Part shown: in pieces, positions 6,839 through 29,524 of the stretch
How the letters are laid out: every line of letters begins with the position of its first letter
Position numbering within the stretch: position 1 is the stretch's first letter
Assembly: GCA_963759165.1 (NCBI GenBank)
Contig: CAVWXK010000001.1
Coordinates: forward strand, 666,260 to 730,259
Origin: an uncultured Pseudomonadota bacterium
Lineage (GTDB): Bacteria; Desulfobacterota; Binatia; Binatales; Binataceae
DNA length: 64,000 nucleotides
Direction: 5' to 3'
The notes under the pieces: model-generated
Databases searched by the model: none
Seen by the model: only the letters and a program-made list of their open reading frames with translations
What the model was told of the DNA's origin: nothing
Made by a program: the position numbers and the translations under genes

Positions 6839-7197
6839 GGAGTCGGCGGTTTTTTGGAGAACCGCGACGAGAAAAAATCCGGCAACGGCGACAGAAGCGC
6901 TGCGGCGCCGGTCAGGAACCGTGATATCGGTGTACGAACCTTCGCAAGCGGCTTGAGGAAGCGACTCAGCTCTGGTTTCAGGAAGCGAGACTGGCTCAGC
7001 GTGTCCGCGTCGATGGCGGCCTGAGTGGGGGGAGTCGGCGGTTTTGCTAAAAACCGCGATGCAGCGATGCCCGGCAATGGCGGGGAAAGAGCAGCGCCCG
7101 TTATGAACCGGGATATTGGCCGGCGAACCTTGGCAACCTGGTTGAAGAGGCGGCTCAGCTTGGGTTGCAAGAAGCGAGAGCCGCTCAGCGTGCGCGT
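6839..7197. repeat. Two tandem diverged ~170-bp units (offset 192 bp) downstream of the relaxase gene
   Basis: Unit A (6839-7008) and unit B (7031-7197) both begin GGAGTCGGCGGTTTT...AACCGCGA (internal hairpin) and end GAAGCGAG..GCTCAGCGTG.GCG. Identity is roughly 70% by eye. Confidence 0.7.
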
Positions 7198-9733: not shown

Positions 9734-12574
9734 CTATTCCCCGAGTAATAGCGCCTTCGCCGCATTCAGCTCTTTCGAGAAATAGCTGGAGCCGCCAAGG
9801 TCCGGGTGCACCTTTTGTATCAGCCTGCGATAGGCCGCCAGGATTTCTGTCCGGCTCGCATTGCGTTCAACTTCGAGGATATCTCGCGCCCGCTCCTCGG
9901 TCATAAAGGGCTCGGGCTTTGGTGGTGGCGGCTTGGGTCGCGCCTTTTCCTTTGCCCCTGACCCTCCATTCCCTCCACCCGGTGGCGGCGGTGGCGGTGG
10001 CGGTGGCGCAAAATACGGATTCTCGTCATAGGCGATCGGCGGCTGCCAATACAGGGCCGGGTGTGTTTGCTGCAACGCAACAAAAGCCTTCGTCAGGTTC
10101 CAGTAATCGACCGGCCTGAGGTAATGCGGGTGGCCGTTGGGCTGGATGGCGATGGCTACGTCCTTGCCTAAGTTGAGGACTTCGTCGGGGTTGAGCAGCG
10201 AGCGCCCCGTCTCGCTATGTGTGGTGCTCTGGCTGGAGCTGGAGCTTCCGCCATGCGCGGAGCTGCTGCTGCTGGAAGAACTGGAGGTGCTGGTGGTTTC
10301 GACGGTGGCCTTACCGAGGGTGTCGCTGAGGTATTTCGCGCTTTCGAGGTCATTGACGTTGCAAAACCACTGGTACGCGCAATTGGACAGGATCGTGGCT
10401 TTGGCCTCCGCGTAGTGGTCCTTCAACTGGTCGAGGCCCTGCACGATGAGGGCGAAATCGACCCCGAAGCCGCTCATGGTGGCGATGTCGCGGGGCAGGT
10501 CGTCGAGCCGCCCGAGCGCCGCAAACTCGTCGATGAGAAACAGGCAGCGATGGCCGTATGGCAGTTTCGTCTGCCGGTTTTTGAAGATGTGCATGGCGGC
10601 GGCGATGACCAGACGCAGCCATGTCTTTTGCGTATCCATCCGTTCCGTCGGGATGACGACATAGACGGTCGCTTTCTGCGTCGCGAGGTCCTCCATCGCG
10701 AAAGACGACTTCGCCGTCGCCGCCTTGATCTGGGGGTCGCTCAGGAACTTGGTGCTCTCGCTCAGGTTCGACATGACGCCGCTGTAGGTTTCATCGGCAA
10801 GGTCGATGAACGGCGCGGCCATTTCGCGGATCGCGCCTGAGAAAGCTTCGCTCGCCGCCATGGGGATCAGGTATTTCGCGGTGAAGTCCTTGCGGGTGAG
10901 GCTCACGATCTCCCGCGCGCGTCCCAGCGTCTTTTGCTCGCCCGGCTGGTCGGCGAGCCAGAGAAATACCGCCGTCAGCACGTTCGCCGCACTGCCCTGC
11001 CAGAACCGGTCCTTGGCGTTCGGCGGAGCCGGGCAGATGGCGCCGGCCAGCGTCTGCGCGATCGCCACGACACTCGGGTCGGTTCGAACAAGGATGTCGA
11101 GCGGGTTGTAGGTGGCTTGAATGAAGCCGCGCTTTTCGTAGGTCGCGGCGAGTTCTTTCCACGGGTTGAGGATGTGGATACTCTGCTTGAGCTGCTCCTT
11201 GCGGATGCCGGCGGTGATGGCGGCATTCTCGCCCTTGGGGTCGATCACAAGGGCGGAGCCGCGGTAGCGCAGCAAGGTCGGAATGATCACCCGCGTCCCT
11301 TTGCCGGTTCTGGTGCGGGCGACGATGAGGGTGTGATGTTCCGCGGTCGAGCAGACTGGCGCGCCCTGAGCGCCGAGCGTTGCCGCCGCCCACCCCGGTT
11401 GGCTGCTTTTGCCAAAGAAAAGTCCATTCGCGAGGCACGCGTCGTCCTTGATGTCGGTTTCCATCGCGGCGTAGTGCGCGGTGCCGTAGACGGTGGAGGT
11501 CTCACGGGCCGGCGGGCCACGGCGGCGGGAAAACCAGTAGAACAGAGGGAGCGCCACTATCGCGCTGAAAACGATCACGTCGGTTGCGCTCACCACGGTG
11601 CCTGCGGAAGGTTGTGAAAATTGGCCGGTGTTCGCCGCTGGCGCGGGTTGCCGGCGCGCGGCAGCAACGGCGACACCCCCTTGCCGGTAATCCCGCTCGA
11701 ATTCACTGCCCTTCCCCGCCGCCTGCCATTTCTGCCGCAGGCGCCCAAGGTCCGTGGTCAGGATCATGTCGGTTTCGCGCCAGGTGGGGGCGTCGATATC
11801 CTTTTTGATCGAGTAGCGATTGCTGACTTCAGTGATTTGGGCGAGAAGCTCCACGGCCAGACTAACGTCGCGCTGATAGTCGGCCGGGGACGTGCCGCCC
11901 TGGCCCTTTCCCTGCCCCGCCGGAACTCTGGACACCGGGATGGGCATCGCCGGGTTCGTGGCGATAGCCTGAGACATCTGTTCGAGCTGGTGGTCGAAGC
12001 TGTCGACGTAGCCCTGGCCTTCGGACGCGTACTTGCCGCGAAGCGCCATGATCTCGTCCATGGCCTTCTTGTCCTCGGTTGCGAATTGCTCCGCCGTGAT
12101 CTCGCCGCGGTCGCGGCGCTGCTGGAGCAACAGGCGCCGGCGTTGAGGCTCAAGCGCCGCCCGAACATCCGCCGTGAGGGCGTCGTTGACGGTGCGGTCG
12201 TGTTCAACCTGCTGCTGCCTGAATTGCGCGGCGCGGGCTTGCAGTTGTGGCACAAGGGTCGCGAGGCGGAGTTTAGTCAGGCCCTCGATCTGGCTCTTGG
12301 CCTGCTGCTGCTCGTCCGCAGGGAACTGCGCGAGCTGTCGGTAGAGGGTCTTGAGCTCGGGATCGATTGCCGTGCTGCGGAGATAAAATGTGTGAATGTC
12401 GATCTGCTGATTGTTCCGCAGGAAACGGTTTTCTTCGGTCTGGACGTTGAGTTCGACGATACGCTGGATCGTCGCATCAGGAACTTTGGCGAAGGCTGGC
12501 GCGGCCCACAGGCACAGCATCAGAAGCGGTGCGTACCGCCACAGGCTGGTCAGACTCGCTGGTCGTGTGCTCAT
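9734..12574 (-). CDS. TraG/VirD4-family type IV coupling protein with a long N-terminal exported coiled-coil region and a C-terminal J-domain
   Basis: Signal-like N-terminus, ~330-aa Gln/Arg-rich region, then a TM segment (VIVFSAIVALPLFYWF). T4CP motifs ARTRTGKGTRVIIPTLL, VIDPKGEN and FLIDEFAALGRL follow. After poly-Ser and poly-Pro linkers comes ILAAYRRLIQKVHPDLGG (HPD). Confidence 0.85.
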   Translation of the reverse strand: MSTRPASLTSLWRYAPLLMLCLWAAPAFAKVPDATIQRIVELNVQTEENRFLRNNQQIDIHTFYLRSTAIDPELKTLYRQLAQFPADEQQQAKSQIEGLTKLRLATLVPQLQARAAQFRQQQVEHDRTVNDALTADVRAALEPQRRRLLLQQRRDRGEITAEQFATEDKKAMDEIMALRGKYASEGQGYVDSFDHQLEQMSQAIATNPAMPIPVSRVPAGQGKGQGGTSPADYQRDVSLAVELLAQITEVSNRYSIKKDIDAPTWRETDMILTTDLGRLRQKWQAAGKGSEFERDYRQGGVAVAAARRQPAPAANTGQFSQPSAGTVVSATDVIVFSAIVALPLFYWFSRRRGPPARETSTVYGTAHYAAMETDIKDDACLANGLFFGKSSQPGWAAATLGAQGAPVCSTAEHHTLIVARTRTGKGTRVIIPTLLRYRGSALVIDPKGENAAITAGIRKEQLKQSIHILNPWKELAATYEKRGFIQATYNPLDILVRTDPSVVAIAQTLAGAICPAPPNAKDRFWQGSAANVLTAVFLWLADQPGEQKTLGRAREIVSLTRKDFTAKYLIPMAASEAFSGAIREMAAPFIDLADETYSGVMSNLSESTKFLSDPQIKAATAKSSFAMEDLATQKATVYVVIPTERMDTQKTWLRLVIAAAMHIFKNRQTKLPYGHRCLFLIDEFAALGRLDDLPRDIATMSGFGVDFALIVQGLDQLKDHYAEAKATILSNCAYQWFCNVNDLESAKYLSDTLGKATVETTSTSSSSSSSSSAHGGSSSSSQSTTHSETGRSLLNPDEVLNLGKDVAIAIQPNGHPHYLRPVDYWNLTKAFVALQQTHPALYWQPPIAYDENPYFAPPPPPPPPPGGGNGGSGAKEKARPKPPPPKPEPFMTEERARDILEVERNASRTEILAAYRRLIQKVHPDLGGSSYFSKELNAAKALLLGE

Positions 12575-14577: not shown

Positions 14578-15900
14578 CTTTTGACGGCTATAGGCTGGTT
14601 AGCTTCGGGAGCTACGGACATAACGGACGCAAGTGAGGGATCGGACAGGGAGTCGTGAGTCTGGCGTGCACTCAGTCCGCTTCAGATACTGTAATGCGGT
14701 GCTTGTAAACACCGCTGCGTATAGACCGTGAGATGAGGCTGTAAAAGAAGCCGTTCCCAGTGTAGAAGCAGCCATCTACAACAACCCCAACGACGGAGAA
14801 CGGCTATGAAGTATTACTGCGGTTTAGATATATCCCTGAATAACACGGCCATATGTGTTGTCAATCAGGATGGTGATGTGATTCGGGAAAGTGAGGTGCC
14901 CACGGAGCCTGTAGCTATCAGTCAGTACCTGAAGGCGACAGGGCTTTCCATGGAACGTGTCGGCCTGGAAGCTGGCGGCCTGACACCCTGGCTATGTCAC
15001 GAATTGCTCGCGGCCGACTGGCCGGCGATCTGCATCGAAACCCGGCACGCGAAAGCAGCCATGCAGGCTCAGCAGGTGAAGACAGACCGCAATGATGCCC
15101 GCGGCCTGGCGCATATCATGCGCACCGGCTGGTTCAAGGAAGTTCATGTCAAGAGTCATGTGAGCCAAAAGCTCCGGGTGCTGCTCGGCAACCGGCGCTG
15201 CCTGCTCGACAAACGGCTGGATATTGACAGCCAGATCCGCGGGACCCTGAAAGTCTTCGGACTCAAAACCGGCAAGGTCACGCGCGGAAAGTACGAACAG
15301 CGCATTCGAGAACTGGTCCAGGACGATCCCGAGCTACAGGCCTACATCTTCCCGATGCTGGAGGTTCGCCACCATCTTGTCCAACAATGCAACGTCCTGG
15401 AGAAGATGATTCTGGATTGCGTAAAGAAAGACGAGATCTGCGGACTGTTCATGACGATACCTGGCGTAGGGCCGCTAACCGCCCTCGCGTTCAAGACGTT
15501 CGTTGACCGGCCAGAACGGTTCCGACATTCGAAGGCTGTCGGTGCCGCCGTGGGGCTGACGCCGCGCAAGTACGCTTCCGGCGAGGTCGACTACGACGGC
15601 CACATCACGAAGTGCGGCGACGTCTTCCTGCGATCACATCTCTTCGAGGCAGCAAAGGTGATGTTGGGCAGAGGAAAGCCAAACCCGCTGAAGGCCTGGG
15701 GCCTTCGCGTTGCCAAGCGCAGCTCGAAGAAGAAGGCCTGCGTCGCGGTCGCGCGCAGGCTGGCGGTCATCATGCACGCGATGTGGCGTGACGGCACGGT
15801 ATTCGAGATGAACGAAGAAGCCGCCGTCGCAACGGCGGTGTGACCTCAGATACAGAGCAAACAGGAACAAGGAGTCAGATATTCTTCGCCGCAAGGCGTG
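14578..15900 (+). mobile_element. IS110-family insertion sequence (ends not resolved)
   Basis: Contains the IS110-type transposase plus ~225 bp of 5' non-coding sequence. IS110 elements lack classical terminal IRs, so the limits are approximate. Confidence 0.5.
14806..15843 (+). CDS. IS110-family transposase/recombinase (DEDD N-domain + C-terminal transposase_20-like domain)
   Basis: MKYYCGLDISLNNTAICVV... (DEDD-type start), ...DRNDARGLAHIMR..., ...IPGVGPLTALAFKT... Confidence 0.9.
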   Translation: MKYYCGLDISLNNTAICVVNQDGDVIRESEVPTEPVAISQYLKATGLSMERVGLEAGGLTPWLCHELLAADWPAICIETRHAKAAMQAQQVKTDRNDARGLAHIMRTGWFKEVHVKSHVSQKLRVLLGNRRCLLDKRLDIDSQIRGTLKVFGLKTGKVTRGKYEQRIRELVQDDPELQAYIFPMLEVRHHLVQQCNVLEKMILDCVKKDEICGLFMTIPGVGPLTALAFKTFVDRPERFRHSKAVGAAVGLTPRKYASGEVDYDGHITKCGDVFLRSHLFEAAKVMLGRGKPNPLKAWGLRVAKRSSKKKACVAVARRLAVIMHAMWRDGTVFEMNEEAAVATAV

Positions 15901-16439: not shown

Positions 16440-17798
16440 TCACTTCTTCGTTGGAGGTTTCGCGGGTGTGGCTCCTGCTGCGCCAGCGTTCACGCTGTCG
16501 GCTGTTTCGCCTGAGCCATCCGCGATAGGCTGCCATCCCGGTATGCCCTGCAGAATGCGCTCGGCATTCTTTGCAGGCGTGATGTGGCCGTAGTAGTCCT
16601 CGATCATCTTGACCGATGTTCCCATTTGTTTCGCAAGGAAGTACACGTCCACGCCTTCCATCAGCCGGAAGGTCGCGTAGGTGTGACGGAGGCAATAGCC
16701 GCTGCGGCGCGTGCCGGATACGCCATAGAGCAGGCCGGATTTCGTCAGCAGATCGGCGATGAGCGTGTCATAAAGACTTTTGGCTGTCTTTCCTTCGGCA
16801 GTCGTGAATACAGGGTCGTCGGATTTTGTCGCTTTTGACATTGCCTTGATGCGGTCGAGATAAGTGGCGACGTTGTTGGCTGCAATCAACTCCCGGTACT
16901 TGCCCTTGCCCCTGACGTTCAGGGTCACAAACGGGCGGCCATCGCGGGTCGTTCGCACGTCGATGTCGCGCCATCTGAGGCTCCGGGCCTCTCCCGTCCG
17001 CATACCGGTATTGGCCATGATGAGCATGAAGTTGTAGGCCATGGTCCTGTACCAGATATTGATTTCTCTGTCGCCTTTTCCTATCCAGTCGCGGGCGAAG
17101 GTATGCAGCTGGCGGTATTCCTGCGGCGTGAATTCATCACGCCGATTCTTGTCCTCGGGCATGCGGCCCTTCGGCACCTGGCTCTCTTTTATATAATGCT
17201 TGCCCGCGGCGAAGTTCATGATGGCCCGGAAGGTCATCATTTCCTGGCGGATCGTGCCGCTCTTTGCGGGCCCGTTCTTCTTCTTTTGTTCGGCGTCCTC
17301 CTTCGCATCCGGCAAAGCGCCGGGCTTCGGCTTCTTGCGGAAGACGCGCTTCTGCGGCTTTCTTAGTGCGTTATTCTCTTTGCGCCAGAAGGGGTATTCC
17401 GTCCATTTGTCCTCGGTGATGGAAGTTATCTGCATATTGCCCATGTAGGGGATGAGGTGCAGGCGGATATGTCCGTCCACGGTCTTCCAGCGATGCAGGG
17501 TGACCTGGCCGATATCCGCGACACGTTTCTGGAAACATGAGTATTCCTTTGCTACGTCAGCAAAGGACTTGTCGAACACCGGAACCTGATGCCGTACCCG
17601 GAATCGGATATCTGAATCGTGGTCAAAAGCCTTTTCTTTAGCTTCGTTGATATCGGATGTCTTCAGGGAGATCGTTTTATACTGGCTGGTGCTTGGCACC
17701 TTGACGCGGCAGTACCAATTCTTGTGCCGCACATCGGCCCTGCGGAAGATGATGAGGCCTTTCTTGAGTTCCTGAACGTCGGTGAGGAAATGTTCCAA
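16440..17798 (-). CDS. Tyrosine recombinase / integrase (Int1)
   Basis: ANTGMRTGEARSLRWRDI (catalytic Arg box) and CLRHTYATFRLMEGVDVYFLAKQMGTSVKMIEDYYGH (H-x-x-R ... Y). TTG start. Confidence 0.9.
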   Translation of the reverse strand: MEHFLTDVQELKKGLIIFRRADVRHKNWYCRVKVPSTSQYKTISLKTSDINEAKEKAFDHDSDIRFRVRHQVPVFDKSFADVAKEYSCFQKRVADIGQVTLHRWKTVDGHIRLHLIPYMGNMQITSITEDKWTEYPFWRKENNALRKPQKRVFRKKPKPGALPDAKEDAEQKKKNGPAKSGTIRQEMMTFRAIMNFAAGKHYIKESQVPKGRMPEDKNRRDEFTPQEYRQLHTFARDWIGKGDREINIWYRTMAYNFMLIMANTGMRTGEARSLRWRDIDVRTTRDGRPFVTLNVRGKGKYRELIAANNVATYLDRIKAMSKATKSDDPVFTTAEGKTAKSLYDTLIADLLTKSGLLYGVSGTRRSGYCLRHTYATFRLMEGVDVYFLAKQMGTSVKMIEDYYGHITPAKNAERILQGIPGWQPIADGSGETADSVNAGAAGATPAKPPTKK

Positions 17799-18588: not shown

Positions 18589-18765
18589 TTAGCATAGGTC
18601 GCGCAAGGCGCGATGAGAAAGAGCGAACAGCGTCGGAAGTCATCGCGTTCTGCGTTTGCAAAGCAAATGTTGTTGGTGTGAGTCTCCATCCGGACGGCCG
18701 GCCAGCGCCAGGCGTGCTCGGTAGTTCCACAAGAGAAAGGCGATAGAACGTTCAAGAACCGGACG

Positions 18766-20892
18766 ATGGCCACGAGAAAAAAAGCAGTATCGACCCCGAA
18801 GTACGTGATGAAAATATCGCGTCTCACGGTCGATAAACTCGGCGTAAAGCTATATGACCGCGTTTCCGCCGTGATCGCAGAACTCGTTGCCAACAGCTAC
18901 GACGCGGACGCGGCGAAGGTCACGATCACCGCGCCGATGGGCGAATATCTGGCAACGCGCTCCCAGGGCGAAATCAAGGACCGGGGATACGAGGTTGTGG
19001 TGGCCGACAACGGCAGCGGGATGACCCCCGATGAGGTCAACCGCTTCTACCTGCGGGTAGGCGCGGAGCGGCGGAAGGACGAACGCGGCGACACGTCGAA
19101 AGAATTCGGCCGAAGGGTCATGGGCAACAAAGGCGTCGGCAAACTCGCGCCGTTCGGAATCTGTCACGAGATCGAAGTGTTGACGGCGGGCGGAAGTCTT
19201 ACGACGGGCAAAGACGAATCCGGGAAGCAGGTTAAGGGGTACCTGAGAGCCCACCTAGTCCTCGACCGCGACGGGATTCTGAGGGACGAGGAATTCGACT
19301 ACGAGCCTAGAATAGGCTCGTTGGACGAAACCATAGCCAAATCCGCCGGAACGACGGTGACCCTGCGGATCTTCGCTTATCGCCGGGTCCCCACCATCGA
19401 GGATTTTTCGAGACAGTTGGCGCAGCGGTTCGGAGTGAAATCCGGCAACTGGAAAATCGAGCTGTTCGACGCCGTCAAGACCCCGAGCGATCCGAAATAC
19501 AAAACCGAAGTCGGCGTGTTCGCCATCAACACGATGGAGAATACCGAAATCTCGTTCAAGCCAGGCAAGAACGGCGAGATCGAAGGAAGAGCTTTCGACT
19601 CCGACGACCAGCCCATTGAAAACGTCAATGCCGGTTTCGCCTACGAAGGCAAGAATTATCCCGTCCGCGGCTGGGTCGCATACGCGAAGGAGCCTTACAA
19701 GGACGACCTCATGGCCGGCATTCGCATCTATTGCCGGGGAAAAATCGCCGCGCAGACCAACGTATTCAACCGAAAGGCCGGATTCACGGGAGAGCACGAT
19801 GTCCGTTCGTATCTCGTCGGGGAATTGCACGCCGATTGGTTGGACGAGAATGAAGACCTGATACAGACCGACCGTCGCGACATCCTCTGGTCGCACGAAC
19901 TCGGACAGGAGTTCGAGAACTGGGGCCAGGCGGTCGTCAGGAAAATCGGCACGCGCTCCCGCGACCCGATGAAGAAGAAGACATGGGAGCGCTTTAAGGA
20001 AATCGCGAATCTCGACGTTCGTGTTCGCGAGGCGTTTCCCCGCGCCGACCAAGAGACCCTGCGCGACCAAGCCGTGACGGTGGCAAAAATGATCGGCCAG
20101 ACAATCCGCGCCGACGAGGTCGAAGACACCGACCGAGTCGAGAGTTTCGTTCAACTGAGCCTCATGCTGGCGCCGGTGATCACTCTTGACGAGAAACTAC
20201 GCGCGGCGGCGGATTCGGCGGATTCGCCGCTGGAAGTCGTTACCGACATCCTGAAAACCGCGCGCATCGCCGAGCTAGCCTCCTTCGGTCGGATTGCGGA
20301 AGACCGCATTCGCGTTATCGAACGGGTTGAGGCCCTGAAGGACGACCCCAATACTTTGGAGTCCGCGTTCCAGACCCTGATCCAAACATCGCCGTGGCTC
20401 GTCAATCCGCAATGGTCGCCGATTACGGCCAATCAGGCTTTCTCGACGCTGCGCAAGGAGTTCGTCAAGTTTTATAAGGAGCAGACTGGCGAAACGCTCA
20501 ATCTCGATGATTTCAGCGACCCGAAGAAGCGCGCAGATTTTGTCATGACCAATCAGGACGCGGCCGTTCAGATCGTCGAGATCAAGAAGCCGCACCACAA
20601 AATCACCGACGCGGAATTGGATCGGATTGTAAAGTACCGCGACCTGATGGAAGAGTTCCTAAACATGAAGGGCCACGAGGCTTTTAAGAGGCTTTTCCCT
20701 GAGTTTGAAATCACCCTCGTCTGCGATGGCGTGAGTTTGGACGGCACGCGCCGCGCGGCATTCGAGGGAATGAAGAAAGCGGGGCAGCTCACGCATATCA
20801 CCTGGAAAGCGTTTCTGCTCAAGACCAGACAAATGCACAAGTCGTTTCTCGACGAGGCAGAAAGACTCAAAAAGGAAACCCGTGCGGACTAG
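18766..20892 (+). CDS. GHKL (HATPase_c_3/MORC-like) ATPase fused to a C-terminal PD-(D/E)xK, Shedu/DUF4263-like nuclease domain
   Basis: Bergerat motifs ELVANSYDA, DNGSGM and GNKGVGKL. The C-terminus reads SPWLVNPQW...RADFVMTNQDAAVQIVEIKKP (D...ExK). Confidence 0.8.
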   Translation: MATRKKAVSTPKYVMKISRLTVDKLGVKLYDRVSAVIAELVANSYDADAAKVTITAPMGEYLATRSQGEIKDRGYEVVVADNGSGMTPDEVNRFYLRVGAERRKDERGDTSKEFGRRVMGNKGVGKLAPFGICHEIEVLTAGGSLTTGKDESGKQVKGYLRAHLVLDRDGILRDEEFDYEPRIGSLDETIAKSAGTTVTLRIFAYRRVPTIEDFSRQLAQRFGVKSGNWKIELFDAVKTPSDPKYKTEVGVFAINTMENTEISFKPGKNGEIEGRAFDSDDQPIENVNAGFAYEGKNYPVRGWVAYAKEPYKDDLMAGIRIYCRGKIAAQTNVFNRKAGFTGEHDVRSYLVGELHADWLDENEDLIQTDRRDILWSHELGQEFENWGQAVVRKIGTRSRDPMKKKTWERFKEIANLDVRVREAFPRADQETLRDQAVTVAKMIGQTIRADEVEDTDRVESFVQLSLMLAPVITLDEKLRAAADSADSPLEVVTDILKTARIAELASFGRIAEDRIRVIERVEALKDDPNTLESAFQTLIQTSPWLVNPQWSPITANQAFSTLRKEFVKFYKEQTGETLNLDDFSDPKKRADFVMTNQDAAVQIVEIKKPHHKITDAELDRIVKYRDLMEEFLNMKGHEAFKRLFPEFEITLVCDGVSLDGTRRAAFEGMKKAGQLTHITWKAFLLKTRQMHKSFLDEAERLKKETRAD

Positions 20893-21970
20893 CGCTGAAT
20901 CGAAACCGCCGGTCGCGGTAGACCTTTTCTCCGGCGCGGGAGGGTTGACGCTGGGTCTCAAGCGCGCCGGATTTCGCGTCGCGGTGGCGGTCGAGATCGA
21001 GGACCACGCGTTCGCGACTTATAAGACCAACCACCCGGAAGTTCGCGCGATCAAGCAGGACATTCGCACCGTCAAGGGCCGCCACTTGCGTGCTATGGCT
21101 GGCGGAGAAGTCGATTTGCTAGCGGGATGTCCGCCGTGCCAAGGGTTTTCTAGCCTCACCAACACTTCCTCGAAGCGCGACCCGCGAAATGACCTCGTTC
21201 TAGAGATGGGGCGATTGGTGAAGGAAATACGACCCAGAGTGGTGATGATGGAAAACGTCCCTGGCCTGGCGGGGCGCGGAAAGCGGCTCTTCAACCGGTT
21301 TTTGAAAACCCTTGACGAATTAAACTACCGATACACTTGGGATGTCCTTCAAGTCGCCGACTATGGTGTTCCCCAAAATAGGCGGCGCCTCGTCCTCTTT
21401 GCGGGCCGGGGATTCGAGTTGGCCCTTCCGAAACCGACTCATCATCGAATGGGAGATAGGGGCCTTCCGTCATGGAAGACGCTCCGGGATGTGATCTCGA
21501 ACATGGAACCCCCGACGCTACTCGAGAAGTCGTCGAAGGCACGCGGTCCGCTACCACTTAGCTGGCATTATGTCAGGCGTCTCTCGCCGATGAACATTGC
21601 CAGATTGCGCAAGACTCGACCGGGCGCGAGTCGCTCCAAGCTTCCCAAATCGCTACGCCCCGACTGCCACAAAGCGGCGGACGAAGGTTACAGCAATGTC
21701 TACGGGCGCATGAGTTGGGATCAGTTGCCCGTTACGATTACCGCTGGCTGCACCACGTTGAGCAAGGGCCGGTTCGGACACCCGTCGGAACTGAGAACCA
21801 TCTCGGTCCGAGAGGCCGCCCGGATTCAAACGTTCCCGGACGACTATGTCTTCGACACTCCATACATGGAATACGCTTGCGAGATGGTCGGAAACGCCCT
21901 GCCATGCGATTTCGCGGAAACGCTAGCCGCTTCGGTCGCCCTGCAACTCCCCGCAAGAAAACAGCCCTAA
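20882..21970 (+). CDS. dcm: DNA (cytosine-5)-methyltransferase (Dcm1)
   Basis: Motifs VDLFSGAGGLTLG (I), GCPPCQGFS (IV), ENVPGL (VI), QNRRR (VIII) and GNALP (X). The GTG start overlaps the upstream stop by 11 nt. Confidence 0.9.
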   Translation: MRTSAESKPPVAVDLFSGAGGLTLGLKRAGFRVAVAVEIEDHAFATYKTNHPEVRAIKQDIRTVKGRHLRAMAGGEVDLLAGCPPCQGFSSLTNTSSKRDPRNDLVLEMGRLVKEIRPRVVMMENVPGLAGRGKRLFNRFLKTLDELNYRYTWDVLQVADYGVPQNRRRLVLFAGRGFELALPKPTHHRMGDRGLPSWKTLRDVISNMEPPTLLEKSSKARGPLPLSWHYVRRLSPMNIARLRKTRPGASRSKLPKSLRPDCHKAADEGYSNVYGRMSWDQLPVTITAGCTTLSKGRFGHPSELRTISVREAARIQTFPDDYVFDTPYMEYACEMVGNALPCDFAETLAASVALQLPARKQP

Positions 21971-22005
21971 GGTGTTCGCGCTATCTCAGCGCCGTCCGTG
22001 AAACC

Positions 22006-22491
22006 ATGGATACCGTCCGCAAGGAAGTTCGGTCCAAGATCATGGCTGCGGTGCGCTCTCGTGGAAACCGAACGACCGAAATCGTCCTCGGAGATTTGCT
22101 CTGGACGGCGGGTCTTCGGGGCTACCGAAAGCATTGGCCCATTCCGGGAAAGCCGGACTTCGCATGGCCGGGGCGCAAAATTGCCGTATTCGTGGACGGT
22201 TGCTTCTGGCACGGTTGTACCTGCAGGTCTCTGCCGTCATCGAACGTAAAGTTCTGGAAGAACAAGATCGAGACCAATCGCAGTCGAGACAGACGCGTGA
22301 CTCGCCTGCTGCGCAGCCAAGGTTGGAAAGTTGTTCGGATTTGGGAATGTCGCGTAAAGAGGACCTCTTCGCTACGACGAGTCGAGAAGCTCGTCGAATC
22401 GTCGCAGATTTCAGCGCGAGGGAACAATCGACGGCGGTCGGCGAAAAGCATTAGGTACGCTGCGAATATGATTTCAGATCTTCGGAGCTAA
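22006..22491 (+). CDS. vsr: Very-short-patch repair endonuclease (Vsr1)
   Basis: RSKIMAAVRSRGNRTTE...PGKPDFAWPGRKIAVFVDGCFWHG...KFWKNKIETNRSRD. The ATG at 22006 lies inside the longer ORF 21715..22491. Confidence 0.85.
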   Translation: MDTVRKEVRSKIMAAVRSRGNRTTEIVLGDLLWTAGLRGYRKHWPIPGKPDFAWPGRKIAVFVDGCFWHGCTCRSLPSSNVKFWKNKIETNRSRDRRVTRLLRSQGWKVVRIWECRVKRTSSLRRVEKLVESSQISARGNNRRRSAKSIRYAANMISDLRS

Positions 22492-23254
22492 TTTCGTCTG
22501 CAGGCACGAGCCGGTAATGGCGTTCCTCGACGACTTTCACTTGGTCGTCGTCGAGCGTCAATTCGAACATCGCGATTGAATCGTCCGGCATGAACTGCGC
22601 GGAGATCGACCGGCACGTCAGGTTCGGGAACTTCTCCTTACAGCAGCGCATATCCTGCTTAGTCTGCACCACGGAAAGCTGATCGTTGCCGCCCTTCGCC
22701 TGGACGGGAAAGACGTATTGCCGACCCTGCCGATCAACGCCGATATAGATTTCGTCGATCTCGATCTGACCTATGCCCTTGACCGTCGTGCGAAGATGGT
22801 TCTGGAGAGAGTAGGCGGCGATTCCGAGGAAAATATCGATCAAACGGTTGTAGCGAACCCTCGCGAGCAACGCCTGTTCGTCGGAAAGCGCGTAGGCGCC
22901 GATTATTTCAGGTGTGGCGTCAGGGATTTTGACCTTCACCAGCGCGGCGTTCGGGACAATGCGGTTGACGCGAACGAGCTTGAACGCATAGAGCGCACGG
23001 CCCGCACCTTCGACGATCCACTCCATGCCCTTCGGCTGGGTCGCCAGAACTTCTTCCGGCATAGGCGTTCGATAGCGGATAGAATATATGACATCGCCGA
23101 GATTCTTCGGCAGGACGATATCCAACTTTTCCGCCGACGACTCCAAATCCTTCCGCTCGAAAGCGACCTCGGTCGCCCCCTTCTTGTAGCGGTCGAAGAA
23201 AATCTTCTTCACCAGGGCTTTGTATCTGTTCTCGCTGATCTCAGGTTTAGTCAT
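22451..23254 (-). CDS. Putative type II restriction endonuclease partner of Dcm2 (assigned by position)
   Basis: Its ATG lies 8 nt inside the 3' end of dcm2. A possible nuclease core is IEIDEIYIGVD...FPVQAKGG. I could not recognise a family. Confidence 0.45.
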   Translation of the reverse strand: MTKPEISENRYKALVKKIFFDRYKKGATEVAFERKDLESSAEKLDIVLPKNLGDVIYSIRYRTPMPEEVLATQPKGMEWIVEGAGRALYAFKLVRVNRIVPNAALVKVKIPDATPEIIGAYALSDEQALLARVRYNRLIDIFLGIAAYSLQNHLRTTVKGIGQIEIDEIYIGVDRQGRQYVFPVQAKGGNDQLSVVQTKQDMRCCKEKFPNLTCRSISAQFMPDDSIAMFELTLDDDQVKVVEERHYRLVPADEISSEDLKSYSQRT

Positions 23255-24573
23255 AAGCCGTCTCGTCGAGCGGACCTATCCCGATATCCTCTTGCTTGCG
23301 CTTTCGCGCCCCGCTCTTGCGGTCCCGTTTTTTGATCGGAACGACGATGCCCCAATAGCGGGCCGCTTGTGACATATCCATTCGCAACAGCGCGGGAGCG
23401 CCCAACGCGACGGTCTCTTTCGGCCGTTCCGGCTCGACGCCCAGCGCCTCGACGAAGCGAGCGGCGATTGCACGAGCCATCGGCGGCGCAACAGCGTTTC
23501 CGATCTGCCGCGCACCGTGCCACTTCGTCTCGTGAAACCTGAACCAGTCGGGGAAACCGTGCAGGCGCGCCATTTCCCGAACCGTGATGCAGCGCGGTTT
23601 TGCGTAGTGGATGGGGCGTGGACTGGTGAAAGCCCCACGCGCCGAATCCGTCCCTGCGCGCAGCGTGTTCGAAACGCCATCACGGGGCAGCCGAAAAAAG
23701 CGAGAGATCGGCTCGACGCTTCCCGGCGCCGTCTTCGAGAAGCGCTGCTTGGAAATGTCCGTGTGATCGGTTCTCATGCTGCAAGTTAGCCGCTTGGGGT
23801 TCCATTTGCGCTTGTAGCCGAAGCCCCAAGCGTCCCGGTCGAGACAACGCATCTTCCGTGCGTAGGTGCTGGGCTCACCCCAATCGTTCGTCTCGACTTC
23901 GTCGCCGACGAGCAACTCGCGGAAATTTTCCGCGTCCGGCAGATCGTGCAGTGCGTCGTGGCACGAGGGGCTGGGAGGCAGGTTGCCGTTTACGCTGCCG
24001 GCAGCATGCGTTGTGGGGTCGGGATAAGAGGCGGGCCGCTTGCCCTTTTTAGCACCCAAGAGAATGAGGCGCTGGCGGTCTTGCGGCACTCCATAATTGG
24101 CCGCGTTCAGCACCCTCCACGGGAGCACCACCTTGTACCCGATATCATCGAAAGCCTCGATCACCTCTTCGAGAAATCGACGCTGCTTTCCGACTGTGAG
24201 CCCCTTCACATTCTCGAAGACGAAGTAGCTCGCTTCCAGCTCGGAGACGATGCGAACGAATTCCCTCACCAAAGCGTTGCGGGGATCGTCGATTGCCCTC
24301 TGACCCATGAGCGAAAATCCCTGACAGGGTGCGCCGCCGAACACGACATCGACACGACGGCGGCCGATTTTGGCCGCCTTTCGGATTGCGTCCCCCGTCA
24401 GCCCGACGACCGATTTCGGGATCGTCGCGCAATGGGGGAAGTTGAACTTGTGGACAGGCCGGATGAATAGGATCGATCTCCACTGCAGCAACTACATCGA
24501 AACCTGCTTGTTCGAAGCCCAGGCTCAAGCCTCCGGCTCCGGCGAAGAGGTCTATTCCGACTGGTCGCTTCAC
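23247..24573 (-). CDS. dcm: DNA (cytosine-5)-methyltransferase (Dcm2), frameshifted in this assembly near 24456
   Basis: Motif I (IDLFAGAGGLSLG...AAVEIDPIH) is in one frame. HKFNFP, GGAPCQGFS, ENVKGL, QDRQR and GNAVAPP are in the +1 frame. Removing one T (CAT CCG GCC t GTC CAC) restores a single ORF. Confidence 0.8.
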
Positions 24574-24983
24574 ATTTTGTCTTCTAGAAAATCTACGGCC
24601 CTGGCGATTGCGGCTTGGGTGTCCTTCAACTCGCATTGCCAGACGACCAAACTCCGCCATCCGACCTTTGCCAACTCTTTGAGCGTCTTTCTGTCGCGGG
24701 CCTTGTTGGCCGCGATCTTCGGCTTCCAATAATCGAGCTTGCTCTTGGGAAGCCTTCCCCATCGGCAAGCATGTCCGTGCCAGAAGCAGCCATGGACGAA
24801 GATCGCCTTGCGGCGCTTCGAGAAGGACAAATCGGGCGAACCCGGAAGCCGTCGGTCATGCAGCGTGTAGCGATAGCCCTTTGCGTGCAGCGCACGCCTG
24901 ACGACCATCTCCGGGCCTGTGTTCCGGCTTCCAACTTTCGCCATGATCGCGCTTCGGCGCTCGGGTGACACTCTGTCCGCCAT
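24570..24983 (-). CDS. vsr: Very-short-patch repair endonuclease (Vsr2)
   Basis: RRSAIMAKVGSRNTGPE...PGSPDLSFSKRRKAIFVHGCFWHGH...YWKPKIAANKARD. Its TGA overlaps the dcm2 GTG (ATGTGA). Confidence 0.85.
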   Translation of the reverse strand: MADRVSPERRSAIMAKVGSRNTGPEMVVRRALHAKGYRYTLHDRRLPGSPDLSFSKRRKAIFVHGCFWHGHACRWGRLPKSKLDYWKPKIAANKARDRKTLKELAKVGWRSLVVWQCELKDTQAAIARAVDFLEDKM

Positions 24984-25162
24984 GTTCCTGTCGCATCGCG
25001 TTCGTGTCCGTTTGAAGCCGCGCGCAAATTGTCGAACGAAAAAATTAGACGCTGACTTCGCGCATGCACCGCCCCTGGATACCTCCACCTGATGCTTCTA
25101 TAGCAGAATCAGAAGGTTCGCCGAAAAGGGGGGAGAGCACGGCTGTGGATAAGCTTCGAACG

Positions 25163-25205
25163 CAAAAAGGCGCGGCCTCTCGAAAAGAGGCCGCGCCGAT
25201 TTTTC
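25163..25205 (-). terminator. Hairpin terminator (T-runs on both sides) ending the ssb-ardC transcript
   Basis: GGCGCGGCCTCT-cgaaa-AGAGGCCGCGCC flanked by A5 and T5. Confidence 0.75.
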
Positions 25206-25542: not shown

Positions 25543-26457
25543 TCATGCAGCCGCTTCCTGGCTGACGGTTTCGCCGCGGCCGTGGATGAAATCGGCGGCG
25601 CGCTGTGCGTGCGCGGCGGCGGTGAAAACGGCGTGGCTGTCGTTGGCCAGCACTTCAAGCCAGTTTGCGATATAGGCGGCGTGGTCTTCGCGGGCTTCAA
25701 GCGCGAGTCCGAGATCGGCGCAGAGGAAAGCCGCTCCGAGTTCGGCCACGAGTTCTTCCATCGCATAGCCCTGAGAACCGTAGCGTTTGCTGCCGAAGTC
25801 GCGGGCAAGGCGTGATTTGTTGCCGGTCCAGTGCGTCAATTCATGGGCGAGAGTCGCGTAGTAGCTGTCGGCGTCGCGGAAGCTTTCGAAGGGCGGAAGC
25901 TGGACGGCGTCGGTTGCGTGGCTGTAGAAGGCGCGGTTCCCGCCGTGGTTGACGGTCGCGCCGGCGGCGGCGAAAAACTTCTCGGCGCGTTCGACACGGG
26001 CGACGGGATCAAGCTGCGGTTCGGTCTTCGCGTAGAAGTGCGCGGGCAGGCCTTCGATCTGCTCGACGTTGAAAACCGTGTAGCCCTTGAGAAAGGGAAT
26101 TTCGCGCTCGGTCTCGTCGCCGGTGGCCTCGTCGGTTTCGGTGCGCGTGATCGTGTTGGCGTAGACCACAAGCGAGCCTTTCTCGCCCTTGCGGACATGC
26201 GCGCCAAGTTCGACGGCTTGCCGGAACGTCATCCAGATTGGCGCGGCGAAGTTCTGCGCCAGTGCGGAGGTCCACAGGGAAAGCACGTTGATACCGGCGT
26301 AGGGCTGGCCATTGTGGCGCAGGGGCCGCGTGATGCGTCCGGCGGCCTGGTCCGCGTTCCACGGCTTCACCCAAGGCCTGACGCCCTTTGCGAGGGAAGC
26401 CATAATCTGTGCGGTGATCCGGCTGTAAATGTCCTGTCGTTCGTCGTTCTGTTTCAT
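25543..26457 (-). CDS. ardC: ArdC-like antirestriction protein (ssDNA-binding N-domain + zincin metalloprotease)
   Basis: MKQNDERQDIYSRITAQIMASLAKGVRPWVKPW... and the HELTHWTG metal-binding motif. Confidence 0.85.
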   Translation of the reverse strand: MKQNDERQDIYSRITAQIMASLAKGVRPWVKPWNADQAAGRITRPLRHNGQPYAGINVLSLWTSALAQNFAAPIWMTFRQAVELGAHVRKGEKGSLVVYANTITRTETDEATGDETEREIPFLKGYTVFNVEQIEGLPAHFYAKTEPQLDPVARVERAEKFFAAAGATVNHGGNRAFYSHATDAVQLPPFESFRDADSYYATLAHELTHWTGNKSRLARDFGSKRYGSQGYAMEELVAELGAAFLCADLGLALEAREDHAAYIANWLEVLANDSHAVFTAAAHAQRAADFIHGRGETVSQEAAA

Positions 26458-26649: not shown

Positions 26650-27021
26650 TCAGAAGGGCAAGGGCGCCTCGGCAGATTTAGCAGCGGCGGGGCGGCGATC
26701 GAGAAACCGGATTTGGCGCGCAATGATTTCGGTGCGGTAGCGTTTGCCGCTGCCGTCCTTCGCCTCGTACGCGCGGGTGGTCAGCCGTCCTTCGACGTAG
26801 ACCCTGCGGCCTTTGCTGAGATACTGCCCGCAGGTTTCCGCCAGCCGTCCGAAAGCGACTATCCGGTGCCATTCGGTGCGCTGCTGCGGGTCGCCGTTGC
26901 GGTCCGTGAAACGCTCGTTGGTCGCCAGCGACAGGTTGGCCACGTTCTGCCCTGACGGCAGAGCATGAACCTGCGGGTCAGCGCCCAGATTGCCGATTAC
27001 GATTGCCTTGTTGATTGCCAT
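26650..27021 (-). CDS. ssb: Single-stranded DNA-binding protein
   Basis: MAINKAIVIGNLGADPQ...TEWHRIVAFGRLAE...VYVEGRLTTR OB-fold signature with a C-terminal ...PLPF tip. RBS is GGAGGA. Confidence 0.9.
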   Translation of the reverse strand: MAINKAIVIGNLGADPQVHALPSGQNVANLSLATNERFTDRNGDPQQRTEWHRIVAFGRLAETCGQYLSKGRRVYVEGRLTTRAYEAKDGSGKRYRTEIIARQIRFLDRRPAAAKSAEAPLPF

Positions 27022-27697
27022 TGTTCTGTCCTCCGCTCTTTGTTGCGCCCGCTTCCCGTTCATCGGGCAGGGCGTGCCGCCTTGCTTTCATCACCGCGCA
27101 ACTTTTTTCCGCGCGGCCCTCTCACAAAAACTGGAGGGCCGTGCGCAGATTCCTGGATGTGCGAGCGGAGCGGGCGGCAGGCCGTGCCAGAGCGCAGCGG
27201 CCCGAAGGGATGGCGCGGCGTGCTAGCGCAGCGAACGCCACCAAATAGGGGTTAGGGCTTCGACTTAAAGGGAAAGGCTGACGGGCGAGTTTGGAGGTTC
27301 AGCAGGGCAATTGCGGAGGCAACTCGCAACCGGTCCTGAGGCCGGACGCGCATCGAACCGCCAAAATGTCGTTTTTATGGTGACAAATTATGGGCCAAAA
27401 GTGTTGAGGAATGGTTAAGCCATTGAACGAATGGCCCTATTGGCCCATTTTTGGCGAAGACCAAAGGCACGCAGTTATGCACGCGGCTACAACTTGGGCC
27501 CCCCTGGAAAGCCCTTGGACTCAACTCCGGGCTCGAACGTCGCGTTTGCAAACCACGTGGTCTTGGTGCGAGCCTGAACCGGAAGTCAAGATGGTAATCC
27601 CGAGAACATCGTCATGTGCGGAACCGCAGTTGCACCCGAAACCTCACGGGCGCGTCTCAACGTCCGTCCGCTCGCCGCACGACTAAAGGACGATAAA

Positions 27698-29524
27698 ATG
27701 GTTTCAAAGTCTGAATGTCTCGACGCAGTAAAGAGTCTGCGAGCTAACCAGGCCGTGGAGGCCTCTGATGAGAACATCATCGCGGCTATTCACTTAAACA
27801 ACACTCATGGTCTTGGTATTGACGCAGCGCTCGACCAGAGTTCGCGTAGTGGGAATGATCACGGTGTGGATGCTTGGTATTACGATGACACCAAGAAGAC
27901 GCTGATCGTTTATCAAAGTAAACTCAGTGAGAGCAAAGCCGCGGCCTTGGCTGGATTGGCCGACCTCAATAGGGCGCGTGCGTGGCTGGAGGAAGTGATA
28001 ATCGCTGGAACAGTAGCAACCATCCCAAATGACAATCACTGCTTATTTAATCTCTACACGAAACTTTCGGAAGTACGGAACACTCTTCAACGTGTCGAGT
28101 TTGAATTGGTATCCTGTTTCAGCAAGAACGACTTGGAAGATGCGCCAGAATACAGCGAGTTCGAAAGTGGCCTCGCCAAATCTAAACTGAATGCGTTCGT
28201 TAAGGGCCAGTTAAGCGGTTCATTGGCAGTAGACCTTGCAGAGTACAACCTCTTACCTACCGTCTGCATACCTAAGACGTATCCGTTAATCAGACTTCCG
28301 CATTCCCGAATCGATTTGAGGCACAACGCCCATCTGGATTTAGCGTACATTCCGCTGCACAGCCTCGTCGAACTTTACCGAGTCAGAGGTAATGTACTAT
28401 TCGATAAGAACGTGCGGCTTTCGTTGTTAGAAAAAAAGGATGCGAGCGAGCGATTGATTCATCCGATAGAAGATACCCTGAAGAGAATCACCTCTGGCAC
28501 TCTAAGTCCGAACATTTTCCCCTTTTACCACATTGGCGTAACCATTGCAGCCAGGGTTTCCACCGCCCAAAACAAGGATATGCTGACTTTAGAGGCTCCT
28601 AGTATTATCAATGGCTGTCAGACAATCACCATCGCCTATGCGTACTTCAAGGAGCTTGAAAAGGCAAACAGGCCAGAGGCAATTGAGCGCTTCAAGCAGA
28701 TCAAGGTGATTGCCAAAATTGTCGTGGGCACAACCAGCGAAGAGCTCAAGGAGATTACCAATGCCAATAATCGGCAGTACCCTATCGAAGATTGGCAGCT
28801 ATTTTCAAATGAACCAATACACATTGAGATCGAACAAACACTGAAGGATATCGGGGTGTTCTATGAGCGACAGGAAGGCAAGTTCGATGCTGTGATGAAG
28901 AGTGCGGACAGCGCGAAGTATTACATCAACACCAACGGTACTTACATTAAGGTTGTCGATCTCGGCCAAGTAATTGCGTTGGCGCGGAGGGATCTGCGCT
29001 GGGCGGCGAAGCCTTCGGAGATTTTCTGGAACAAACAAAATCACGACAGAGTATTCGACAAAGCCATCCCAAGGTGCCCGAGAGATATCGTCTTCTGCTT
29101 GAACCTCCAGAAGGCGATCAGACGCGGCTTGAACGTGTACTTGGAACAACCCACTCTCGCCAACAGTAGTGCCCCCAAAATCTTTCAGAAGCCGTTAGTT
29201 AGAGCCTACTTATCACGTACCGCTCTGCTATACTTTTACCAGAATCCGAAGAATGAATGGATTCGCAAGGACTTTTCTAAGAAATTATCGAAGAAAGCTA
29301 GCCCGACGCTTGTGGAGGAGATGCAGACGTTTTACCTGAAGGTCATAAGCAAAACCAAGAATTGGTACACGGGCGAATCGCAAGGATTGAAGGTTGAGGT
29401 CTCTAAGAAGAATATGGACTCGTTCTTCGGCGGATTAGAGATTGAATTGGGGGTAGTCGGGACTGAGGGTTCAATTCCATTTTCGGGCACAAGCATTGAC
29501 TGGACGAAACATGACGAGGATTGA
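27698..29524 (+). CDS. AIPR-family (abortive infection phage resistance) protein
   Basis: 608 aa from the ATG at 27698 (RBS AAAGGA). It has the ...IINGCQTITIAY... motif typical of AIPR and is visibly more AT-rich than its flanks. Confidence 0.65.
   Translation: MVSKSECLDAVKSLRANQAVEASDENIIAAIHLNNTHGLGIDAALDQSSRSGNDHGVDAWYYDDTKKTLIVYQSKLSESKAAALAGLADLNRARAWLEEVIIAGTVATIPNDNHCLFNLYTKLSEVRNTLQRVEFELVSCFSKNDLEDAPEYSEFESGLAKSKLNAFVKGQLSGSLAVDLAEYNLLPTVCIPKTYPLIRLPHSRIDLRHNAHLDLAYIPLHSLVELYRVRGNVLFDKNVRLSLLEKKDASERLIHPIEDTLKRITSGTLSPNIFPFYHIGVTIAARVSTAQNKDMLTLEAPSIINGCQTITIAYAYFKELEKANRPEAIERFKQIKVIAKIVVGTTSEELKEITNANNRQYPIEDWQLFSNEPIHIEIEQTLKDIGVFYERQEGKFDAVMKSADSAKYYINTNGTYIKVVDLGQVIALARRDLRWAAKPSEIFWNKQNHDRVFDKAIPRCPRDIVFCLNLQKAIRRGLNVYLEQPTLANSSAPKIFQKPLVRAYLSRTALLYFYQNPKNEWIRKDFSKKLSKKASPTLVEEMQTFYLKVISKTKNWYTGESQGLKVEVSKKNMDSFFGGLEIELGVVGTEGSIPFSGTSIDWTKHDED

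Follow-up and report, generated by a model that had tools for sequence, protein, structure and literature searches.

The locus

Three genes lie in tandem on the forward strand between positions 18766 and 22491 of the window, by which is meant the whole 64,000-nucleotide (nt) stretch analysed here, from an uncultured bacterium of the family Binataceae (contig CAVWXK010000001.1). They encode a protein of 708 amino acids (aa) that will be referred to as the restriction endonuclease (REase), a C5 cytosine DNA methyltransferase (MTase) designated Dcm1, and a Vsr very-short-patch-repair endonuclease; it is as a putative restriction-modification (R-M) system that they are considered here.

18766..20892, + strand: restriction endonuclease (708 aa), a full-length BbrUII/HgiDII-family homologue with paraMORC3 / type I-D Shedu architecture
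20882..21970, + strand: C5 cytosine DNA methyltransferase (Dcm1; 362 aa, GTG start), by Pfam, TIGRFAM and PADLOC matches
22006..22491, + strand: Vsr very-short-patch-repair endonuclease (161 aa), by Pfam and TIGRFAM matches

As read from the sequence, the REase and Dcm1 genes overlap by 11 nt, with the GTG of Dcm1 at 20882 and the TAG stop of REase at 20890-20892; the ATG of Vsr at 22006 follows 35 nt past the Dcm1 stop at 21970. The REase translation contains ELVANSYDA (aa 39-47), DNGSGM (aa 81-86) and GNKGVGKL (aa 120-127) near its N-terminus and the motif SPWLVNPQW...RADFVMTNQDAAVQIVEIKKP (aa 542-609) in its C-terminal part. Dcm1 has motifs I (DLFSGAGG), IV (GCPPCQGFS), VI (MMENV), VIII (QNRRR) and X (GNALP), and matches Pfam DNA_methylase (PF00145) over profile positions 4-321 of 324 (E=8.9e-66, 223 bits, cutoff 22) and TIGR00675 (dcm) at 182 bits (cutoff 100.65). 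Vsr, in which FVDGCFWHGC fits the FxxGCFWHxH core, matches Pfam Vsr (PF03852; E=2e-21, 76.1 bits, cutoff 27) and TIGR00632 (vsr; 114.4 bits, cutoff 97.85). The profile matches of all three proteins are far beyond chance. A first reading, made by a model from the letters and translated open reading frames (ORFs) and referred to below as the sequence-only reading, had described these ORFs, their motifs, the overlap and the 35-nt gap, all of which are confirmed by the sequence and the translations; its complete C5-MTase with all five motifs stands as well. PADLOC, which it had proposed to run, classes the three proteins as REase_II, MTase_II (MTase_II/DruM for Dcm1) and Vsr. A megablast search of plasmids with 18766-22491 gave no match, an exact-sequence look-up of the 708-aa REase found no record, and promoter and terminator scans stayed at background level, with nothing standing out.

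An ATPase joined to a nuclease

The REase is divisible into four parts:

18766..19455, + strand: GHKL (Bergerat-fold) ATPase domain, aa 1-230, from HATPase_c_3, conservation and Foldseek
19456..19896, + strand: S5-like transducer (middle) domain, aa 231-377, from the Foldseek span and conservation
19897..20355, + strand: long helical linker, aa 378-530, from DSSP on the structural model and low conservation
20356..20892, + strand: PD-(D/E)xK nuclease domain, aa 531-708, from the structural model, Foldseek, invariant residues and Pfam SduA_C

The full-length AlphaFold2 (AF2) model, made with an alignment of 62 diverse full-length relatives that are 23-77% identical to the window REase, has a mean pLDDT (predicted local distance difference test) of 90.3 and a pTM (predicted template modelling score) of 0.74. 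It comprises an alpha/beta ATPase (1-230), a beta-rich middle (231-377), four long helices (378-526; by DSSP, 378-414, 427-446, 455-483 and 488-526) and an alpha/beta C-terminal domain (531-708). The helical linker of the model is possibly a coiled coil or a dimerisation arm.

The N-terminal part matches Pfam HATPase_c_3 (E=7.6e-17), and a Foldseek search of the PDB with the whole model finds Hsp90/TRAP1, MORC2, MORC4 and SMCHD1 at E of about 1e-11, in alignments that span 440-515 columns and thus cover both the GHKL domain and the S5-like transducer. The ATPase residues are E39 (putatively catalytic), N43 (Mg-binding), the G1 box at D81-G85 and the G2 box at G120-K126. All 62 homologues have D81, G83, G85, G123, G125, D591 and E605, and at least 90% of them keep E39, N43, K326 and K607. 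The near-invariant K326 of the transducer, by analogy with MutL and GyrB, is inferred to be the gamma-phosphate sensor; the transducer also carries a DWLDExEDLIxTDR motif (D360, D364, R370, W375). The least conserved stretch of the entire protein, aa 241-300, lies in this middle domain and, on account of its variability, is a candidate DNA-recognition element.

The nuclease motif consists of E532, which is likewise conserved, D591, E605-x-K607 and R620...Y624. Since the full-length Foldseek search is dominated by the GHKL part, the C-terminal 189 residues were modelled and searched alone, with a trimmed 37-sequence alignment in which D591, E605, K607 and Y624 are invariant. The resulting model (pLDDT 92.7) matches NucS (2vld, E=1e-4), EndoMS (5gke, E=4e-4), BstEII (E=5.5e-3), FokI (E=6.7e-3) and the DNA-bound E. 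coli SduA (8ps5_A, E=0.021, probability 0.93, TMq 0.46). In a profile search, the D...ExK...Y core could be aligned to the PDB sequences of EndoMS and NucS, but weakly (E about 0.1); phmmer with the whole REase against PDB sequences returned only noise. Pfam SduA_C (PF14082/DUF4263) is matched over profile positions 3-59 of 159 at 19.6 bits (E=1.1e-3), below its gathering threshold of 27; 26 of the 62 homologues match it at E<=0.01 (best 4.6e-7), and four match NucS_C.

With catalytic residues invariant or nearly so in both, the ATPase and nuclease modules look intact. The GHKL N-terminus and PD-(D/E)xK C-terminus of the sequence-only reading are thus upheld, the one by HATPase_c_3, the conserved Bergerat motifs and the Hsp90/MORC2 resemblance, the other by structural similarity to NucS, EndoMS and SduA, that is, to a nuclease fold. 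Its label of Shedu-like fares less evenly: the SduA structural match and the SduA_C matches among homologues support it, but the window REase itself falls below the DUF4263 threshold and lies closer to NucS and EndoMS, so that, on the models, NucS/EndoMS-like would describe the nuclease slightly better.

Family membership

The REase matches the NCBIfam model NF050001 ("BbrUII/HgiDII family restriction enzyme") in a single collinear alignment of aa 13-703 with profile positions 1-650 of 659 (E=2.9e-73), at 247.5 bits, which is under the equivalog cutoff of 550. The PADLOC REase_II model PDLC03419 matches aa 12-632 (E=2.7e-28), and PDLC03485 matches too. An exhaustive HMMER search of 1.84 billion cluster representatives yielded 2571 relatives of the REase at E<=1e-3, of which 245 reach E<=1e-30. 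The nearest relatives with a named source organism are in Terriglobales, Bryobacterales, Planctomycetota and cyanobacterial assemblies. All 62 homologues of the alignment match NF050001 (best 3e-122; 172 to 392.5 bits in ten scanned singly) and none reaches its cutoff, which places the window REase in a broad family, one branch of it being the named HgiDII/BbrUII group, as judged by profile comparison. When P0208, the member nearest to NF050001, was used as the query for further homologues, no protein bearing a name, BbrUII and HgiDII included, was returned. Weak matches to the MutL model occur in 21 of the 62.

Linkage to a cytosine methyltransferase

Ninety-one loci with relatives 24-92% identical to the REase were gathered, three of them from a single-protein scan of genome contigs; an alignment-based metagenome scan supplied the statistics that follow. 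Each locus was searched by tblastn with the Dcm and Vsr proteins of the window. MTases were counted where both flanks of a locus reached 1.1 kb or more, and were required to lie within 800 nt. An adjacent C5-MTase is found in 50 of 53 non-redundant loci. Before four duplicates were removed the count was 54/57, with the MTase downstream on the same strand in 38, upstream on the same strand in 14 and on the opposite strand in two, at a median gap of 56 nt. Of 32 loci, 21 have Vsr no more than 2.6 kb away. Furthermore, the identities of REase and adjacent MTase co-vary (Spearman 0.57, p=2e-7, n=70). Linkage to dcm and vsr, on which the sequence-only reading had staked itself beforehand, is accordingly real, and for the MTase it is near-obligate; comparison of the two frequencies makes nuclease plus C5-methyltransferase the conserved unit and Vsr a frequent accessory.

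Two of the three loci that lack an adjacent C5-MTase still have a methyltransferase nearby. In L032 (3980-8242) two GHKL paralogues in tandem are followed by a convergent C5-MTase; in L049 (2831-4756) the GHKL-nuclease homologue stands behind HsdM and HsdS, in the position expected for a Type I HsdR; in the third the C5-MTase is further downstream. The layouts of L049 and L032 suggest that the nuclease module may be recruited by other methyltransferase types. The pairing with a C5-MTase extends to distant homologues with annotation (24-26% identity), which plasmids of Pantoea, of the archaeon Haloplanus and of Streptococcus agalactiae carry: all bear the label "ATP-binding protein" and directly adjoin a gene called "DNA cytosine methyltransferase".

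One architecture under three names

The architecture of the REase has been met before, in three separate literatures. The N-terminus of R.HgiDII was described as GHKL in 2008, when its C-terminal domain was "unassigned to any fold"; four other REBASE subfamilies have GHKL N-termini, and R.VeiORF1182P, among these, has a PD-(D/E)xK C-terminus (PMC2441816). The HgiDII relative considered here has a C-terminal domain that now models confidently as a PD-(D/E)xK nuclease of the NucS/Shedu type. M.HgiDII is an experimentally characterised m5C (5-methylcytosine) MTase with the site GTCGAC (PMC5867850). Accounts of M.BbrUII conflict, one making it a C5-MTase homologous to M.HgiDII (PMC5867850) and the other reporting N6-adenine methylation (PMC5829577). 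HgiDII and BbrUII share with the window REase full-length collinearity, a GHKL N-terminus with an appended C-terminal domain, an adjacent C5-MTase and residence in mobile or variable regions; the window REase differs in belonging to another clade, in being ~50 aa longer and, probably, in its recognition site.

The second name is paraMORC3, defined by Iyer, Abhiman & Aravind (2008) as GHKL plus S5 plus a C-terminal restriction endonuclease (RE) fold with E-D-ExK motifs, in cytosine methylase and Vsr neighbourhoods (PMC2292703). The window REase has this composition, membership being assigned by architecture (AF2, Foldseek and E532/D591/E605/K607). Iyer et al. stress that many nuclease-bearing paraMORC3 genes stand alone (PMC2292703), whereas the clade sampled here is almost always MTase-linked.

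The third is Shedu. Its type I-D (1D), according to Gu et al. (2023 preprint, published 2025), takes in the GHKL-bearing DUF4263 proteins with an Hsp90/MORC-like middle domain; these authors suggest that GHKL-Shedu might sense misfolded proteins, and name EndoMS as structurally nearest to the Shedu nuclease. VcSduA, a GHKL-DUF4263 protein of V. cholerae, protects as a single gene, and non-abortively, from T1-like phages as well as from vibriophage X29 (Adams et al. 2025, PMC12137116); mutation of its ATPase (E27A) or of its nuclease (K557A) abolishes phage defence (PMC12137116). Compared by description, type I-D Shedu and the window REase have in common the GHKL ATPase, the clamp-like middle, a DUF4263-type PD-(D/E)xK domain and equivalent catalytic Glu and Lys, and direct, non-abortive restriction would by analogy be expected of the window REase too. 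In contrast, VcSduA is a single gene with no cognate methyltransferase, while the window REase is translationally coupled to Dcm1 and scores below the SduA_C threshold. Canonical SduA (of B. cereus and E. coli) and NucS/EndoMS are more distant: they share the PD-(D/E)xK core and the E...D...ExK...Q/R..Y motifs, but their N-terminal sensor domains differ from that of the window REase, which lacks the mismatch-binding domain of NucS and offers no support for the tetramer or the DNA-end sensing of Shedu.

The sequence-only reading knew of no experimentally characterised unit of this kind; that statement is out of date, and the novelty of the system falls with it: the REase is homologous over its full length to a curated restriction-enzyme family and matches Type II REase models of PADLOC; mutants of the ATPase and of the nuclease have been assayed in VcSduA, a GHKL-Shedu protein (PMC12137116); and GHKL plus S5 plus RE fold in Dcm/Vsr neighbourhoods is paraMORC3, described in the very paper that the reading cited (PMC2292703). 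The locus adds one member to an already catalogued family of restriction enzymes, of which the methyltransferase-linked form is already catalogued as well.

How the system may work, and what else it might be

Taken together, the three genes are best explained, with a probability of roughly 0.8, as a Type II-like m5C R-M operon, in the order R-M-V, on an integrative conjugative or mobilisable element. Dcm1 would methylate a short specific site on resident DNA, and the REase, which by analogy is probably an ATP-gated nuclease, would cut DNA that does not bear this mark by means of its D591/E605/K607 site. The GHKL ATPase and S5-like transducer would most likely dimerise on binding ATP, as in MutL, Hsp90, MORC and the dimer model of VcSduA; the dimer would clamp DNA and license the two nuclease domains for a double-strand break. 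Vsr would nick beside T:G mismatches arising by deamination of the 5-methylcytosine (5mC) that the methyltransferase makes, thereby limiting the mutational cost of carrying the system. The domains, the conservation of their catalytic residues, the homology to a curated restriction-enzyme family and the near-obligate R-M linkage are shown here; it is from what is known of the family that we infer cleavage that is sequence-specific and sensitive to methylation at a recognition site, and its gating by ATP. The roles proposed by the sequence-only reading, with the nuclease as restriction arm, Dcm as self mark and Vsr as repair of deamination, appear sound on this evidence.

The pairing expected of a Type II R-M system is seen, in the 11-nt overlap, in the adjacent MTase of 50/53 loci and in the co-variation of the two proteins (rho=0.57). 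The absence of an ATP requirement, which also belongs to that type, may not hold for the REase because its ATPase motifs are conserved. Several considerations weigh against an m5C R-M operon with an ATP-gated nuclease. Classical Type II enzymes are normally assayed in the absence of ATP, and we know of no experiment that shows a need for ATP in any enzyme of the HgiDII family. At 247.5 bits, far short of the 550 that an equivalog would need, the REase is a relative of HgiDII/BbrUII and not a functional equivalent, and the members of its own clade are known as sequences. No DNA-recognition element is evident in the REase. R precedes M, and no controller protein was seen in the window; safe establishment in a new host is not accounted for. 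VcSduA, the sole GHKL-Shedu protein tested, works alone, with no methyltransferase (PMC12137116), and sensitivity to methylation can therefore not be borrowed from it.

The likeliest of the alternatives, though we regard it as unlikely, would make the REase an immune nuclease of type I-D Shedu that works by itself as VcSduA does, set off by a cue of infection (free DNA ends or some factor of the phage, for example) and not by the lack of methylation, with Dcm1 and Vsr as independent neighbours in a defence island. VcSduA has the same domain architecture and defends as a single gene, the weak SduA_C matches and the structural match to SduA 8ps5 (probability 0.93) point the same way, and the REase gene does lie among defence genes (a second R-M system and an AIPR/AbiU gene, for which see below). 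In contrast to a single-gene system that needs no methyltransferase, however, the REase is Dcm-coupled in the window as its relatives are in the 50/53 loci, with reading frames that usually overlap or nearly abut, in bacteria and archaea, which is far beyond what co-location in defence islands would give. The co-varying identities, the overlap of reading frames in the window and the homology to a curated restriction-enzyme family tell against independence as well.

A role in repair is more improbable still. It would have the GHKL protein with its NucS/EndoMS-like nuclease act with Vsr, in the manner of a MutL-NucS-like factor, to process T:G or other mismatches caused by Dcm, with no restriction involved. 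The best structural matches of the nuclease are indeed mismatch endonucleases, the MutL model weakly matches a third of the homologues aligned (21/62), MutL stimulates Vsr in E. coli (as cited in PMC2292703), and linkage to Dcm would be expected equally. Yet the match to NucS is confined to the generic catalytic domain and does not include the mismatch-sensing N-terminal domain, Vsr is missing at about a third of loci whereas Dcm is missing at very few, the relatives are catalogued as restriction enzymes, and they are scattered patchily over mobile elements, as R-M systems typically are. Least probable of all is a modification-dependent (Type IV-like) nuclease directed at foreign methylation or modified DNA, with a Dcm of different but compatible specificity: GHKL/MORC-type proteins do occur in varied R-M contexts (PMC2292703) and the neighbouring system in the VcSduA island is modification-dependent (PMC12137116), but neither Pfam nor Foldseek finds a modification-reading domain (SRA, EVE/PUA, DUF3427 or similar) in the REase, tight translational coupling to a methyltransferase is a hallmark of classical R-M, and HgiDII is listed as a Type IIP enzyme (PMC2441816).

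A broader scheme is put forward tentatively, with somewhat less than even confidence. HgiDII/BbrUII-type enzymes and stand-alone type I-D Shedu (VcSduA) would form one lineage of ATP-gated GHKL-clamp nucleases, of which the MTase-linked branch, including this locus, would tell self by 5mC; the REase would then be ATP-dependent and stand outside the classical Types I-IV. Among the ten papers in the literature searched that mention HgiDII or BbrUII, none is on Shedu.

Recognition site and control

Of the 64 six-base palindromes, CTCGAG (20 observed, 45 expected; z=-3.8) and GTCGAC (14 observed, 33 expected; z=-3.3) are the most depleted in the window, relative to a maximal-order Markov model of the whole of it. 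As a pointer to the Dcm1 site this depletion is only a hint. An attempt at predicting the site failed: the PDB relatives of Dcm1 align over catalytic motifs only, Dcm1 and Dcm2 (the methyltransferase of the second R-M operon) are 29% identical with divergent target recognition domains, and the depletion is merely suggestive.

Directly upstream of the REase gene, several relatives have an ORF of 69-76 aa (L004, 5789-5998; L013/L014, about 3750-3980), which is preceded by an inverted repeat, TAGATTGGTAACAATCTA. To judge from their placement, the ORF may encode a controller protein and the repeat may serve as its operator. The ORF is absent from the window and from its closest relative, L012, which have in common ~130 nt of upstream sequence that includes the palindrome TTTGCAAAGCAAA (window 18600-18765).

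A probable mobile element and its other cargo

Judging by its gene content, the leftmost 30 kb of the window resembles an integrative conjugative or mobilisable element (ICE/IME):

1477-1553: tRNA-Arg
1570-2658: CapR/DUF4379 zinc-finger protein, near the tRNA-Arg end of the element
2969-6574, - strand: 1201-aa ORF with no Pfam match, adjoining the CapR/DUF4379 gene
7185-8672, - strand: relaxase
9734-12574, - strand: type IV coupling protein with a C-terminal DnaJ motif
14806-15843: IS110-family transposase
16440-17798, - strand: tyrosine integrase
22451-23254, - strand: Type II REase2 (267 aa; PADLOC PDLC03404, E=1.6e-132), apparently intact
23247-24573, - strand: Dcm2, whose GTG start overlaps the Vsr2 stop in ATGTGA
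24570-25088, - strand: Vsr2
25543-26457, - strand: ArdC anti-restriction protein
26650-27063, - strand: single-strand-binding (SSB)-like ORF, by eye from the translation
27614-29524, + strand: AIPR/AbiU protein (636 aa; Pfam AIPR, E=2e-24; PADLOC AbiU, E=1e-22)

Housekeeping genes, among them CysS and one for a LUD-domain protein, follow from about 34 kb onward. When attachment sites were sought as repeats of the tRNA-Arg 3' end, no direct repeat reaching 14 nt turned up. The AIPR/AbiU gene sits in a stretch of low GC content (0.47-0.49, against about 0.6 elsewhere) and is probably another defence gene, separately acquired. Relatives at 86% identity reside on the same type of element, beside relaxase, coupling protein and integrase, and are followed by a convergent second m5C R-M system; L008-L010 have the layout of the window, except that their convergent second R-M system is another one (DUF4928 plus Dcm).

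In the window, the second m5C R-M operon, which also includes a Vsr gene (22451-25088, minus strand), converges on the first, and the 3' end of Vsr1 (the Vsr of the first operon) shares 41 nt with that of REase2. A 1-nt frameshift near 24455-24460, outside any homopolymer, splits Dcm2 and leaves motif I in one frame and motifs IV-X in another. An intact REase2 beside a broken Dcm2 would be lethal, unless the frameshift is an assembly error or REase2 is silent. Between ArdC and the Vsr2 operon lies a perfect, GC-rich hairpin of 12-13 bp (25169-25197) with T-runs on both strands, which looks like a bidirectional terminator.

Significance

As a gene find the locus is routine: it adds one to the m5C R-M systems that, together with Vsr, are carried by mobile elements. 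Its value is modest and consists in joining three literatures that name one architecture, the HgiDII family of REBASE, Aravind's paraMORC3 and type I-D Shedu. The near-constant pairing with a cytosine methyltransferase in the sampled clade points to plain restriction, rather than to the sensing of misfolded proteins. The locus would be a usable, though not uniquely good, model for the function of a GHKL ATPase within a "Type II" enzyme, and it is in the role of the ATPase in HgiDII-type enzymes, together with the link between HgiDII, paraMORC3 and type I-D Shedu, that the remaining interest resides.

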